DNA of 64,000 nt, taken from positions 1 to 64,000 of IMG/VR virus record IMGVR_UViG_3300027747_002198. The stretch is one strand, 5' to 3'. Within the stretch, counting starts at the first letter, position 1; every line of letters starts with the position of its first letter. The notes beneath the pieces were generated by a model. The model saw nothing but the letters and a program-made list of their open reading frames with translations. It had not been told where the DNA came from and did not search any database. The position numbers and the translations under genes were made by a program. This DNA is from a virus. Of this stretch, positions 2,096-6,929 are shown piece by piece.

Positions 2096-3295
2096 TTAAA
2101 CAACTCTCGTATTGTTGTATATCATTCGAATAAAAGTTTCTTCTTGATTACGAACAGCAGGAAGTTTTCCTGTAATTGCTTGTTGTTTCAATGCAGTATT
2201 TGTGGCAGCATTATTTACAACTGCACCAGCAACCTGACTAATTTTTTCATCTAATTTATCGAACACATTTTCTTTTGTTGCTTGAGTCATTTTTTGACCA
2301 ATATTGGCACTAATATCCGGTGTGGCCATGGCAGCAGGAGGCGGAGTTGCTGAAGTTGCTGGAGTTGCCGGAGCAGGTGATGAAGTCGGCGCAGAAGCAG
2401 GTGTTACAGGCGAGGCTGTAGGTGTTGAAGCAGGCGATGAAGAAGAAGTCGTAGCTTCTTGCCTCTCTTTTAGTGTTTTTCCTGTTTTAGGATCAAAACC
2501 TACAGACTTCAAATATTCTTCTTCTTCTTTTCCTTGTTTACCAAATTCATACCAAGATGATTTAATTTTTCCTTCATCATGTGCTTGACGAAGTAAGGTG
2601 GCTCTCTTTGATGCAACTTCATCAGCTTGAGCTTCTGTGATTGCTTTACCCTCCGTGGAAAGATCCGCTGCACCTTGAACTTTTGATGCTTCTGCATGAG
2701 CTTCTTTGGAAGCCGCAATCATTAATGCCCCAAGACTGGTGGCAAGCAAGATAGCACCGCCTACAGGACCCATAAAAAATCCTGCAACTCGACCTAATAT
2801 ACTCAATGCTGATAAAGCTCCACTACCAAGCCCAAAAACATCTAAAAGTTTGTCTATAAAGCTTTTTTCTTCTTCTTTCTGTTCAACAGCTGTAGGATTA
2901 TCTTTTTTATCTTTTGCTTCTTTTAAGGCATCAAGAAGTTCTTTATCTTTTCTTTCTTTATCTTCTTTAATTCCTTCTTCAAAATTTTTAGATTTTTCTG
3001 ATTGTAACTTATCATCATCATAAGATTTTTGCATAAGGGTTAATATTTTTTTCAAAATATCAACAACATCATTATCGGGAGAAGTTAAGGGATCAATTTT
3101 TGTTGCTTTTGCACCAGTTTCTTTAGTTTTACCTTTTTCTTTTTTAGATTTGCCAACTACTTTTTCTAAAATTTTAAGTTCTTTGTACAGATTAAAATTG
3201 GTTAAAAATATAGCCAATTTTTCCATATTCTCAGGATCAAATTTTTCTTCTAGTATTTTTATAACTTTTTCAGTTTCTTTACTAATTTCTGGCAT
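2096..3295 (-). CDS. Tape-measure/baseplate-hub-like protein (coiled coil, hydrophobic segment, Pro/Ala/Thr linker)
   Basis: Lies downstream of gp26/gp51; K/E-rich helices, Gly-rich hydrophobic stretch (GLGSGALSALSILGRVAGFFMGPVGGAILLATSLGALMIAA), C-terminal VVNN...VRNQEETF. Confidence 0.5.
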   Translation of the reverse strand: MPEISKETEKVIKILEEKFDPENMEKLAIFLTNFNLYKELKILEKVVGKSKKEKGKTKETGAKATKIDPLTSPDNDVVDILKKILTLMQKSYDDDKLQSEKSKNFEEGIKEDKERKDKELLDALKEAKDKKDNPTAVEQKEEEKSFIDKLLDVFGLGSGALSALSILGRVAGFFMGPVGGAILLATSLGALMIAASKEAHAEASKVQGAADLSTEGKAITEAQADEVASKRATLLRQAHDEGKIKSSWYEFGKQGKEEEEYLKSVGFDPKTGKTLKERQEATTSSSSPASTPTASPVTPASAPTSSPAPATPATSATPPPAAMATPDISANIGQKMTQATKENVFDKLDEKISQVAGAVVNNAATNTALKQQAITGKLPAVRNQEETFIRMIYNNTRVV

Positions 3296-3296
3296 T

Positions 3297-4694
3297 TTAT
3301 CCTAATAACTTTCTTAAATATATCGGGCGGTCATCAACCTTTTCTTCTTTTTGTGCAACCGCTTTATTTCCCATTTGAGTATTTGTTGTGGTACTATTAT
3401 TTACAACAGTTGGAGCTTTGGTGGTTTTCAATTCATCTTTAAGTGTGTCATTTGTTTTGGATACAGAAGCTACTTGTGAAGAAGGGGGTGTAGACGGAAC
3501 AGGAACAGTTTTTTGTGTGGTCTCTTGTGCAACCGAAGAAGTTCCCGATTTAGTTATAGACGAATCATTTAAAAAAGATTGAAAATATTTTTGTCTATCG
3601 TCTAAACCAATATAACCGCCGTTTACAAACTTAGTTACACCTTTAATATCGTCCCAACTACCTTTAAATCCAGCCATATATCTAATAGCGGTATCAGCAG
3701 CTTGTTTTATATTTGATACGTTATCTGGATTACCGGCAACGCCAAATTTTGTATAATTTTGTTTACCTGTTAATTGAATAAAACCTCGACCTCTAAATTT
3801 AAAACCTTCACCAGAACCTTCAGGCGCATTACCCATTCTACCACCATAAATTCGTTCTGCCACAGACTCAGGACCTCCAGCTGCCACTCTTTGTGCATCT
3901 TCTGGTGAACTAAATTTTTTAGGAAATAATTTTAATAGTGTAGGAGCTTTGTAATTAAGATTTTCACTCAATATCGAAAAACCTCCCGATTCATGAGCAA
4001 CTTGAGCCATAATGGCAGCTCGTTGTGTAACATCAGTAATTTTGGCATCATCCATGGCTTTTATCATGGCATTTTTACCTTGTTCAGATGTTACTTTGAC
4101 AGGTTTGCTTTCAGCTACTGCTTCTTTTTTTTCTAGTTTTACTGTAGGTGGTGGTTGTACTTGCTTTTGTGCTTCAACTCTAGTTGGTTCTTTAATCTCA
4201 GGATGTGGTCCTTCTTTTACAGATGGAACTGGAGCTGGTTCAGCTGCTTTTTTGGCAGCCGCTTCTTCTTTGTTTTTACCCGATACAGCCATACCCAATA
4301 CCATGGCGCCCGCACCAGCTTCAAGTATATTGCCGTCTAAACCTTTTTTAGGTTTCTTTTTTGGTTTTGGCTTTTCTTTTTTCTTTTTTGGTCCTCGTAT
4401 TGCTTCAACCAATTTTTTTGTTTTATTTTCTTCTTCTTCTTGTGTTTCTTCTTTTAAATTATTAGCAAGTTCTCTGCGCTTTAATTCATTAGCACGCATT
4501 TTGACCATAAGGTCATAAATTTTACCTAAGATTTGTACCGATTCACTGGAGAATTGAGAAGTGCCAAGGCTTTCAGGCGCTAGAGATTTTTTCATACCAG
4601 AAACTTTTGCTTTGGTTTCTGGAGAGACCGTTTTTTCAGAAGAAGAACCCGTTGAAAGTTTATCTTTCACCGAGGAAGAAATTTTAGATTTCAT
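3297..4694 (-). CDS. Tape-measure-like virion protein with a glycoside hydrolase family 19 (chitinase/endolysin-like) domain
   Basis: GH19 motifs AQVAHESGGF, ENLNY, YGGRMGN, FRGRGFIQLTGKQNY, TKFVNGG..GLDDR; immediately downstream of gp51. Confidence 0.75.
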   Translation of the reverse strand: MKSKISSSVKDKLSTGSSSEKTVSPETKAKVSGMKKSLAPESLGTSQFSSESVQILGKIYDLMVKMRANELKRRELANNLKEETQEEEENKTKKLVEAIRGPKKKKEKPKPKKKPKKGLDGNILEAGAGAMVLGMAVSGKNKEEAAAKKAAEPAPVPSVKEGPHPEIKEPTRVEAQKQVQPPPTVKLEKKEAVAESKPVKVTSEQGKNAMIKAMDDAKITDVTQRAAIMAQVAHESGGFSILSENLNYKAPTLLKLFPKKFSSPEDAQRVAAGGPESVAERIYGGRMGNAPEGSGEGFKFRGRGFIQLTGKQNYTKFGVAGNPDNVSNIKQAADTAIRYMAGFKGSWDDIKGVTKFVNGGYIGLDDRQKYFQSFLNDSSITKSGTSSVAQETTQKTVPVPSTPPSSQVASVSKTNDTLKDELKTTKAPTVVNNSTTTNTQMGNKAVAQKEEKVDDRPIYLRKLLG

Positions 4695-4829
4695 TTACCT
4701 TTTCTTTTGTCTTTCTTTTATGCGAGCATTTTCTTCTTCAACATATTGAATGAGGAGCGTGATGTAGATATCACGTTCCCAAGGTAGCATATTTTCAAGT
4801 TCAGTTAGACTATACTTATGGTGTTGCAT
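4695..4829 (-). CDS. gp51: Baseplate hub assembly catalyst gp51 (44 aa from ATG; probably the -1 frameshift extension of gp26)
   Basis: Absent from the ORF track; manual translation MQHHKYSLTELENMLPWERDIYITLLIQYVEEENARIKERQKKR is typical of gp51-like proteins; the frame stays open upstream to the gp26 stop region. Confidence 0.8.
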   Translation of the reverse strand: MQHHKYSLTELENMLPWERDIYITLLIQYVEEENARIKERQKKR

Positions 4830-4879
4830 CAAAGAAAAGTTAGTCTTATAGTAATTCTGCAAATTGTCATGACGAAATG

Positions 4880-5599
4880 TTAGCCGAAAAAACTTTCAAG
4901 TCCTTCGACATCAATAGTGTGGTGAAAACCACACTTGCTACAATCAATCTCAATAGTTTCTTTTAACTGTGGTAGATTATTAAAAAATTCTTCAACTTTA
5001 CTAAACTGTTGCTGGTTCATTGATTCTACAAACTCTAACATTTCACCTGGTTGTGCTTCATGGTCATAGTAAAATTGTTCACCATCGTAAATGTATTCAA
5101 TACTTTCAGCAATCATGTTAAAAGTGATATCATTTAAATTTTCATATTTAAACGAATCTTTAACAACACCAAATTCTGGATACTTCATTTTGATTACAAT
5201 TTTATCACTTAATTGAATCTCAGGATTATTTTCGTTAGTTTGTACTTTAATATCTAAAAGATTAACTTCTTTTTCCATGATATTATTACAAGTTTTTCCG
5301 TCAACTTCATTGTTGCAACGGTAACGACTTTCAACAACCTCACCTACAGACTTAGCACGAAGGTGAATAAAGTAATATTCAATATCAATGATAGGCAATT
5401 TTTCAACATCAATGCCTTCTGTCAAAGTGCAATTATAAAGAATATCTTTAATACACTCGTGTATTGTGCTGGATTCTTTTGATTCCATTGCCATCAACAG
5501 GTTCTTCTGTTCTTTGACAAGGAACGGTCTAAATTTTACTTTCTTTTTTGAAAGCGGCAGTTCAACTTCATAAGTTGGCACATCAAGTTTTGGTAACAT
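4880..5599 (-). CDS. gp26: Baseplate hub assembly chaperone gp26
   Basis: MLPKLDVPTYEVELP, FRPFLVKEQK, LRAKSVGE, Cys pairs including CSKC, C-terminal GLESFF. Confidence 0.9.
   Translation of the reverse strand: MLPKLDVPTYEVELPLSKKKVKFRPFLVKEQKNLLMAMESKESSTIHECIKDILYNCTLTEGIDVEKLPIIDIEYYFIHLRAKSVGEVVESRYRCNNEVDGKTCNNIMEKEVNLLDIKVQTNENNPEIQLSDKIVIKMKYPEFGVVKDSFKYENLNDITFNMIAESIEYIYDGEQFYYDHEAQPGEMLEFVESMNQQQFSKVEEFFNNLPQLKETIEIDCSKCGFHHTIDVEGLESFFG
4886..4892 (-). other. Candidate -1 programmed ribosomal frameshift site T TTT TTC at the 3' end of gp26
   Basis: Minus strand reads GAA AGT TTT TTC GGC TAA; the -1 frame reads without a stop into gp51. Confidence 0.65.
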
Positions 5600-5629: not shown

Positions 5630-5637
5630 TATTTATC
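5630..5637 (-). promoter_or_regulatory. T4-type late promoter for gp26
   Basis: GATAAATA on the minus strand overlapping the gp54 stop; SD GAGG upstream of the gp26 ATG. Confidence 0.55.
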
Positions 5638-6319
5638 ACTCAAATAAATTATTAAAATCAACATTCTGTACTGCATCAGGTAAACTGTTAATTGCTGAAC
5701 CGAGTGCGCCAGCACCGCTACCACCTAAACCACCAATCATACTTGAAATAGATGCCAAACCAGCATCGACAAGTTCCATACCAAGTGCTTGTAGAGAATT
5801 GTTTTTCCATTCAGTATAAGCAAAAGTTACATTTAATTTAACGTATCCGTCAGCACTCCAATCCAAATCCACCTGATTCATTGAAACTGGATAAGCGTCA
5901 ATCAAATCAACAGAATAAGATAATTCACCTTGCGAATTATATTGATTAACGGTAATTGTGGTAACATAATCACCTTTGTACCTGAAATTATAGTTGTAAT
6001 TTGGATTGATAAAGTTCAACCATGCATCAAAAAAGACTTTCTGGCTCATATCACTATCTATGATAAAAGACAAATCTATATCAGTATAAGATGTTTTGTA
6101 TGGATATTTTTCAACAGGATTAGAACCTATTTTTTGATCAAGTGTTTCAAATGTTCTACCGGGTAGTTGTGCATTTTCACAACGATAAGTTAAACTTTTT
6201 GCAGAGTTAACATAAGGTATCAATGTCAAAGGTACAGGAATGCTCACATCAAATCGATTCGGCCTTGCTGGATCGACTTTAAAATTTGATCTAAATTGAG
6301 ATATATCTCCTGCTGCCAT
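5636..6319 (-). CDS. gp54: Baseplate tail-tube initiator (gp54-like, gp19 fold)
   Basis: ARPNRFDV, CENAQLPG, FFDAW, DAYPVSM..VDLDW, LNVTFAY tube-fold motifs; the true gp19 is elsewhere (60317). Confidence 0.7.
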   Translation of the reverse strand: MAAGDISQFRSNFKVDPARPNRFDVSIPVPLTLIPYVNSAKSLTYRCENAQLPGRTFETLDQKIGSNPVEKYPYKTSYTDIDLSFIIDSDMSQKVFFDAWLNFINPNYNYNFRYKGDYVTTITVNQYNSQGELSYSVDLIDAYPVSMNQVDLDWSADGYVKLNVTFAYTEWKNNSLQALGMELVDAGLASISSMIGGLGGSGAGALGSAINSLPDAVQNVDFNNLFE

Positions 6320-6329
6320 TTACTTTTCC

Positions 6330-6929
6330 TTAATTTTTCTTAATTTCGTCTATTGAATCTTGCCAAACTTCTTGCGGTTTAGCGCCCTTAAATAGTTGCA
6401 TAGGTAAGAATATTGCCACATCCCACTCATTTGGTTGAATGGTAAGTATTTTTGATTTTGTGTGGTTATACAAGTATCTTTTAATACATGGTTTAAACTC
6501 ACGGAAGCGTCTGGAGGCGTTCAAAATGTCGTAAGTGATACGAATACGTTTGACTTCATCCTCATCGTTTAGGACTGCGTAATCCAAGAGTTTGTCTAAG
6601 AATGCCACTCTATACTTAATTGGCAAATAATGAAGATTTAACCCAAGAAAACCGTCATTATATTTCTCCAGTACCAATACCAAAGGAAAACGATCATAAT
6701 AAGGCAAATCTGCCTTTCCTTTAGGATCGTAATAAAAGCAATATAATCCACCCAGCATTAATCGATTTGTTTTTCGAATGGCTGCTTCACGAGCAACACC
6801 AAGCGGAATTTGTGATGGATTTTTCAAGTCAGCAATTTTCTGGCCCAACCATCTATACGCATCTCTGGATAAAGATTGTATTTGAGCTGCCGTTTTTTGC
6901 TGAGTAATTTTTGTAAGTTTAGATGCCAT
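6330..6929 (-). CDS. gp2: DNA end protector protein gp2
   Basis: FYYDPKGK..LPYYDRFPL, GFLGLNLHYLP, KPCIKRYL. Confidence 0.9.
   Translation of the reverse strand: MASKLTKITQQKTAAQIQSLSRDAYRWLGQKIADLKNPSQIPLGVAREAAIRKTNRLMLGGLYCFYYDPKGKADLPYYDRFPLVLVLEKYNDGFLGLNLHYLPIKYRVAFLDKLLDYAVLNDEDEVKRIRITYDILNASRRFREFKPCIKRYLYNHTKSKILTIQPNEWDVAIFLPMQLFKGAKPQEVWQDSIDEIKKN

Follow-up and report, generated by a model that had tools for sequence, protein, structure and literature searches.

A conserved slippery heptamer and a probable -1 ribosomal frameshift linking gp26- and gp51-like reading frames in an uncultured T4-like phage

The tail genes of an uncultured, T4-like phage were analyzed in a stretch of 64,000 nucleotides (nt) comprising positions 1 to 64,000 of IMG/VR record IMGVR_UViG_3300027747_002198 (hereafter, the window). 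At 4880..5599 (-), the window carries a gene for a protein of 239 amino acids (aa) resembling phage T4 gp26 and, in the adjoining -1 frame, a short reading frame resembling T4 gp51; all junction coordinates are read on the minus strand. The sequence evidence makes it probable (about 85% by our estimate) that the gene is decoded with a ribosomal -1 frameshift to produce two proteins, one of 239 aa and one of 301 aa. This reading draws on a slippery signal in the correct register, the conservation of that signal among relatives, -1 coding from the slip site onward and the homology of the predicted fusion to T4 gp51.

The 239-aa open reading frame (ORF; 4880..5599), which encodes the short form, a gp26-like tail assembly chaperone (TAC-N) of the PF12322 and phrog_150 families, ends in ...CSKCGFHHTIDVEGLESFFG (that is, ...GLESFFG), with the final codons GAA AGT TTT TTC GGC TAA. 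These codons contain the heptamer T TTT TTC (4886..4892) in the X XXY YYZ register of slippery sequences, identified by sequence reading and junction conservation, and the 0-frame stop TAA (4880..4882) follows one codon 3' of it. The -1 frame is shut by a TGA at 4898-4896, opens at 4895, just 3 nt 5' of the heptamer, and stays open to a TAA at 4697-4695. Translated from the C of TTC, it reads RLTFRHDNLQNYYKTNFSLMQHH...KKR, an extension of 63 codons plus stop (4695..4886) that corresponds to the gp51 C-terminal domain (phrog_634). The predicted long form (TAC-NC) would thus span 4695..5599 via a -1 slip at 4892-4886 and measure 238 + 63 = 301 aa, with the same architecture as T4 gp51. A +1 reading of the slip (UUU UUU CGG) was rejected: the C of TTC is read again in the extension frame, and such a shift is -1 (equivalently +2). 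The ATG usually annotated as the start of 'gp51' (4827..4829) lies inside the extension, is preceded by ACTTTTCTTTG and has no Shine-Dalgarno (SD) match. An SD-like GAAGGA (4901..4906), a candidate stimulator, sits 8 nt 5' of the heptamer, and the stop of the extension adjoins the ATG (4694) of the next gene. An earlier note on this DNA had described the final codons, the heptamer, a fusion of about 301 aa, an ATG without an SD, the GAAGGA and the abutting stop, and all of these details were confirmed. The sequence TTTTTTC occurs 15 times on both strands of the window versus 35 +/- 6 times in dinucleotide-preserving shuffles (100 of 100 shuffles hold at least 15), a depletion that extends over the whole window. 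By itself the motif is not rare, so the case rests on its register, position and conservation.

The junction was surveyed in 212 loci: 80 from the window's clade of uncultured phages (70-100% identity), 80 from a cyanophage clade and the rest from pelagiphages, KVP40-like phages, Ackermannviridae and Tevenvirinae. A megablast search against 50,697 phage records returned no near-identical phage. Wherever the extension lies in a separate ORF, it is in the -1 phase (180/180 loci) and never in the +1 or 0 phase, and 176 of these 180 loci keep T TTT TT(C/T). Alignment of gp26-gp51 junctions from T4-like relatives thus bore out two expectations of the earlier note, a shared heptamer and a constant -1 phase. 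The loci in the -1 phase span the window's clade, cyanophages, pelagiphages, KVP40-like phages and phages of the genera Menderavirus and Angelvirus. In the pelagiphage clade the junction holds a run of eight T (AGT TTT TTT TAA), and in Stenotrophomonas phage YB07 (Menderavirus) and Aeromonas phage AsFcp_4 (Angelvirus, Straboviridae) GAT TTT TTC leads into a -1 extension beginning 'FFRL...'. The AsFcp_4 extension, which is gp51-like and follows GAT TTT TTC GAT TGA (L215:1908-2075), carries no annotation; that of YB07 (L214) is annotated as a hypothetical protein starting from an ATG that overlaps the stop.

The four loci without the heptamer are two from Ackermannviridae (..ATT TTC ATT TAA) and two that appear to be disrupted. 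The gp26 homologues of Salmonella phage Vi01 (L005:3200-3420) and of loci L180-L199, all Ackermannviridae, end in GA(A/G) ATT TTC ATT TAA. They lack an X XXY YYZ heptamer, yet a gp51-like domain (..IDLLSYF..SMPWHLDLL), unannotated, lies in the adjoining -1 frame. The two frames could be joined in these phages only by a single-tRNA slip on T TTC or by some other mechanism. A few proteins outside the T4 group (database representatives P0020 and P0142) carry base and extension in one frame (..LEGLACFFQSRYGSHTNLESYY.. and ..NFFLLILSHESL..) and may reflect a natural fusion of the two frames or a mistake of assembly in a homopolymer. Homopolymer runs are error-prone and, with such rare in-frame forms among the database proteins, the split gene could also be read as a broken gene or an assembly error, in which a once in-frame gp51-type gene suffered a one-base deletion in the homopolymer. 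We assign this explanation a negligible probability: many independent samples and isolates (176 loci) share one phase and one stop offset, the short form has a conserved end of its own, and purifying selection acts on both frames.

To weigh this conservation against amino-acid constraint, 102 distinct junctions were compared, of which 50 belong to the window's clade and 52 to that of the cyanophages. None of the seven heptamer positions varies in this set, three third positions of 0-frame codons among them, whereas only 1 of 40 neighboring 0-frame third positions (20 per clade) is invariant. The offset of the stop is also constant (+10 in 102/102 junctions). The pre-heptamer codon varies in meaning (AGT Ser, AAT Asn, GAT Asp, TCT Ser, GCT Ala) and always ends in T, and the last 0-frame codon is GGN, GCN or GTN (Gly, Ala or Val) while the overlapping -1 codon is invariably CGN (Arg). 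Judged from these patterns, the conservation of the heptamer exceeds amino-acid constraint. Upstream of the junction, codon positions 1/2/3 have mean entropies of 0.40/0.32/1.21 and 0.40/0.35/1.40 bits, with 0-frame position 3 the highest, and 0.49-0.62 of the one-base codon differences are synonymous in the 0 frame. Just 3' of the heptamer the entropy peak moves to position 3 of the -1 frame (0.74-1.10 versus 0.02-0.49 bits elsewhere), and over the first eight codons after the slip the synonymous fraction is 0.62-0.65 in the -1 frame versus 0.08-0.31 in the other frames. Hence, both variability and synonymous changes switch frame at the heptamer, which indicates that -1 translation begins there. 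The window offers no possible start codon at this point, as only AAG TTT TTT stands after the TGA. Coding conservation 5' of the gp51 methionine, another expectation of the earlier note, was found as well: the -1 signature runs through the 19 codons that precede the ATG, and the match to the gp51 profile phrog_634 covers 18 of the 19 extension residues encoded there.

The protein families encoded in the two frames are consistent with a fusion. The 239-aa protein matches Pfam PF12322 (T4_baseplate; E = 1.4e-59; 201.9 bits, with the cut-off at 24.5; residues 8-238) and phrog_150 ('baseplate hub'; E = 1.4e-62). The complete genome (161,799 bp, with terminal repeats) has a single PF12322 gene, so a long form of the gp51 type is possible in this phage only by recoding. 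Translated in the -1 frame, the 63-residue extension belongs with gp51, matching phrog_634 ('baseplate hub assembly catalyst') at E = 4e-29 over residues 2-62. Furthermore, the extension matches the C-terminal end of phrog_150 (positions 235-276 of 282), which implies that some members of that family carry it in frame. T4 gp51 is such a contiguous protein. Both T4 gp26 (208 aa) and gp51 (249 aa) belong to PF12322 (E = 9e-64 and 4e-52, respectively), and in gp51 the family covers residues 1-201 and is followed by about 48 phrog_634-like residues (E = 1e-23) that reach residue 246. Indeed, our own profile scan found that the hidden Markov models of base and extension abut inside the single T4 gp51 ORF. 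The in-frame motif '..VF(K/R)LL(V/L)NPDE(I/V)F.FY..' of T4-like gp51 proteins aligns with the window's trans-frame 'FF|RLTFRHDNLQNYY' ('FF|RLT'). By these alignments, the predicted 301-aa fusion has the architecture of T4 gp51, T4 gp26 is the short paralogue, and the 'gp51' of cyanophage style is only the C-terminal domain of T4 gp51.

In T4, genes 26 and 51 are adjacent and divergently transcribed, and gene 51 heads the operon 51-27-28-29, in which 29 is the tape measure gene. Leiman et al. (2010, PMC3004832) count both products among the chaperones of hub assembly and describe gp51 as essential, though missing from the particle and of unknown function. The earlier note recorded that 26 and 51 are treated as separate hub-assembly genes. 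They proved to be divergent PF12322 paralogues, and gp51 is already base plus extension. Thus, T4 and the window share the protein family and the C-terminal extension on the long form and differ in how the two forms arise, as two divergent paralogues in T4 and, in the window, from one gene with the long form produced via recoding. T4 gp26 lacks the heptamer, ending in GAG TTC TTT GAG TTA CTA TAA, and the Tevenvirinae likewise have two paralogues and no heptamer in gp26. Gp26 proteins of the T4 type (L200:826-1449 (-); paralogues L205-L212) have 3-4 residues beyond the conserved FF (EFFELL*, EFFKVL*, EFIRIL*), which look like the start of the extension (FF|RLx; gp51 F|KLL). This suggests, from sequence, that gp26 arose via truncation of an in-frame long form. 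The tree is compatible with an origin of the T4 pair by duplication within the Tevenvirinae but does not establish it, the joint split having just 87/57 support and the branches being long.

Predicted structures offer a further comparison. The AlphaFold2 model of the 239-aa protein has a mean pLDDT of 90.2 and a pTM of 0.83. A Foldseek search of the model against the PDB gave nothing with E <= 0.001, and no sequence relatives with solved structures were found. In an exhaustive alignment to 48,161 PDB chains, four small proteins ranked first, each matching over residues 1-95: 3fgx (Z 7.6), 3klu (YqbN; Z 7.2), 2ob9 (Z 6.6), the one titled a tail assembly chaperone (of HK97), and 5ir0 (Z 5.6), with the next match at Z 4.3. 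We take 3klu and 3fgx to be the same kind of protein as 2ob9. These matches would fit a chaperone-like N-terminal domain. A model of a T4-like gp51 (pLDDT 90.9) folds the extension as a small helical domain (helices 196-203, 208-221, 226-230 and 234-248), whose structural matches are generic helix-loop-helix proteins (Z <= 5.3).

Several observations weigh against frameshifting at this locus. The match to the tail assembly chaperone fold stays under Z 8, the level flagged as safe for structural matches, and the N-terminal domain of the T4-like gp51 model aligns to 3fgx with a Z of 3.9. T4 gp26, which does not shift, also keeps the 'FF' pair as protein sequence, and amino-acid constraint accordingly accounts for some of the conservation of the T-run. 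No stimulatory RNA structure was found downstream in the window, where the 86 nt 3' of the heptamer are no more stable than shuffled sequence (z = +0.8). An ATG (4829) is present, and a free-standing 44-aa product is conceivable. Finally, transcriptional slippage on the T6 run would yield the same long protein, and sequence alone cannot separate the two mechanisms.

Regarding RNA structure, members of the clade show 60-nt folds of -1.1 to -3.1 kcal/mol (z positive) and no hairpin; one is seen in some other clades (L175, z = -4.9). Frameshifting in lambda G/GT has no downstream RNA structure either. Possible stimulators are the upstream SD-like element, GA(A/G)GG, conserved 8-9 nt upstream of the heptamer across junctions, and the 0-frame stop, which follows the heptamer after one codon. 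Translated, the SD-like motif is a conserved Glu-Gly, and at the same place T4 gp26, which does not frameshift, has an Arg-Gly (AGAGG); because the Glu-Gly is conserved, a stimulatory role of GAAGGA is inseparable from constraint on the protein. Thus, the SD-like element that the earlier note had singled out is present 8 nt 5' of the heptamer, but its role as a stimulator is confounded.

If the extension were instead a separate gene, translated from ATG 4829 (or TTG 4862) and perhaps by re-initiation after the TAA, no fusion would be made. Public records annotate the extension in this manner, 44 of the 50 junctions of the window's clade share its ATG 4829, and KVP40-like phages and YB07 have an ATG that overlaps the stop (TAATG, TGATG). 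However, just 26 of the 52 cyanophage junctions have ATG at the codon corresponding to 4829; elsewhere it reads ATA, ATC, ATT, GTA or ACA (Ile, Val or Thr). The TTG at 4862 is kept in just 12 of the 50 sequences from the window's clade. No start is conserved, the first candidate falling anywhere between codons 2 and 34 of the extension, and SD-like tetramers almost never precede the candidates. Nor does the region 4830-4880 hold a minus-strand sigma-70-like or terminator-like site, or the surroundings of the locus a T4 late-promoter TATAAATA. The residues conserved upstream of the start cannot be explained by a free small peptide; furthermore, T4 gp51 is a contiguous fusion and the window's genome has no other long form. 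We therefore regard two separate genes as very improbable. The -1 phase, the lack of a conserved start and the coding signature from the slip site all favor the proposal of the earlier note that the small 'gp51' ORF is a frameshift extension. The small 'gp51' ORFs, annotated in hundreds of T4-like genomes and left without annotation in others such as AsFcp_4 and Vi01, are most likely no independent genes but the recoded end of the chaperone gene.

Transcriptional slippage, in which the RNA polymerase adds one U in the T6 run, would make the same proteins by another mechanism. The site is a homopolymer, and the T8 run of the pelagiphage clade (AGT TTT TTT TAA) would suit such slippage. Set against this, the run is fixed at six T followed by C in the 102 junctions, with no lengthening, and it keeps the exact X XXY YYZ register. 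Six U are short for efficient slippage by the bacterial RNA polymerase, and in lambda and P2 it is the ribosome that slips on the homologous chaperone genes. We consequently give the polymerase only a slim chance of being the source of the long form and favor a -1 shift of the ribosome.

From these comparisons we infer slippage on the ribosome, along with its efficiency, its stimulators and the binding partners of the products. Most ribosomes would terminate at the TAA (4882-4880) and release the 239-aa short form, the counterpart of T4 gp26 (TAC-N). Some would slip back one base on T TTT TTC, with the Phe-tRNAs in the P and A sites re-pairing from UUU, UUC to UUU, UUU, and would then read CGG CTA ACA... 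in the -1 frame to 4695 to make the 301-aa long form, the counterpart of T4 gp51 (TAC-NC). The extra 60 or so residues of the long form would fold into a small domain of helices. If lambda gpG/gpGT is a guide, the two forms may both coat the tape measure protein encoded downstream and the extension may recruit tube or hub subunits. Neither form would be expected in the finished particle.

The neighboring genes may fit such a role. Upstream of the chaperone gene lies a gene (5636..6319 (-)) for a tail tube protein of the gp19/gp54 family (PF06841, E = 1.4e-7; PF23849, E = 5.7e-8; phrog_45, E = 2e-40), whose counterparts at the same position in HTVC008M and AsFcp_4 are annotated as the gp54 tube initiator, and, further upstream, a gene for a gp2-like DNA end protector (6330-6929 (-)). 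Downstream, the tape-measure-like region (2096-4694 (-)) consists of two ORFs with one base between them, of 465 aa (3297..4694 (-)) and 399 aa (2096..3295 (-)), each with hydrophobic segments rich in Gly; in cyanophage relatives one gene of about 800 aa occupies this place. The 465-aa protein matches phrog_181 (E = 1.7e-49), has an embedded lysozyme-like domain and shows a weak N-terminal match (E = 0.01) to the gene at the same position in cyanophage S-SSM5. The 399-aa protein, known from the ORF list, is of low complexity and possibly the remainder of the tape measure. Profile searches assigned no Pfam or NCBIfam family to the 465-aa and 399-aa proteins, and NCBIfam gave no match for any of the four proteins searched. 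We call these genes tape-measure-like on the basis of their position, composition, the weak N-terminal match and the embedded lysozyme domain. The G/GT analogy of the earlier note thus gains from the gene order, the in-frame T4 gp51 and the moderate N-terminal fold match, and is held back by a tape measure label that comes from position and composition only.

A 2016 recoding review describes G-T frameshifting as conserved in long-tailed phages 'except T4' (PMC5009743). According to the PRFect paper (PMC10885494), which cites Vladimirov, Gautam and Davidson (Virology 2022;566:9-15, doi 10.1016/j.virol.2021.11.003), the tail assembly chaperone (TAC) genes of T4-like phages have been identified, and in some of these phages a short gene and a fused long gene replace frameshifting. 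Similarly, a 2025 paper (PMC12846349) cites Vladimirov et al. (2022) for poly-T runs as -1 signals in T4-like TAC-N genes. Our literature searches on a gp26/gp51 frameshift, a slippery gp51 and a hub assembly catalyst frameshift found nothing relevant, and the 2022 study surfaced via the reference list of the PRFect paper. As described by the papers that cite it, this work seems already to cover both the TAC identity and the poly-T signals, so the idea of the earlier note is not new. We treat the TAC identity of gp26 and gp51 as published in kind, and going by these citing papers the frameshift in T4-like TAC genes has probably been published in kind too. It is unlikely, if conceivable, that the 2022 paper covers just the chaperone identity and the two-gene solution of T4, in which case the -1 frameshift on TTTTTTC would be undocumented. 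Judging from the same citing papers, the window's clade of uncultured phages presumably lies outside its coverage.

For this window, the gain is a corrected annotation and no new principle: the public records and the gene calls of this phage omit the predicted 301-aa protein. If the 2022 paper does stop at the chaperone identity and the two genes of T4, the comparative evidence from Kyanoviridae-like, pelagiphage, KVP40-like, Angelvirus and Menderavirus phages and from the window's freshwater clade would fill the 'except T4' gap, and the 3-4 residue remnant after the FF of T4 gp26 (E/K-L-L) would argue that a frame-fused long form was duplicated and then truncated. The case shows two evolutionary routes to a pair of short and long chaperones, one recoded gene or two paralogues, and it ties the long-enigmatic gp51 of T4 to the general logic of tail chaperones in long-tailed phages.

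The proposed site resembles known systems of -1 frameshifting in different respects. E. coli dnaX has a stimulatory SD-like element about 10 nt 5' of its heptamer, comparable to the GAAGGA at 8 nt in the window; dnaX differs in its strong 3' hairpin, none having been found here, and the window's SD-like motif is confounded with Glu-Gly. The E/E+E' frameshift of the P2 tail chaperone, reportedly described by Christie and colleagues in 2002, is likewise that of a myovirus chaperone pair with a -1 slip on a T6 run (T TTT TTG). Unlike the window's gene, those of P2 encode an unrelated protein family in a phage that is not of the T4 type. Among tail chaperone genes the -1 frameshift is conserved; this finding, with lambda gpG/gpGT as its model, is said to have been worked out by Levin in 1993 and by Xu, Hendrix and Duda in 2004, 2013 and 2014. 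Much as in lambda, the window's gene sits between a tube-family gene and a gene that may encode the tape measure, and no downstream structure is needed. In contrast, there is no sequence similarity to the lambda proteins and the two heptamers differ (T TTT TTC here, G GGA AAG in lambda). The base protein of the window is also distinct, with 239 aa and Cys-pair motifs, of which just the first 95 or so residues resemble the small TACs, and T4 genetics places the function of gp26 and gp51 at hub and baseplate assembly.

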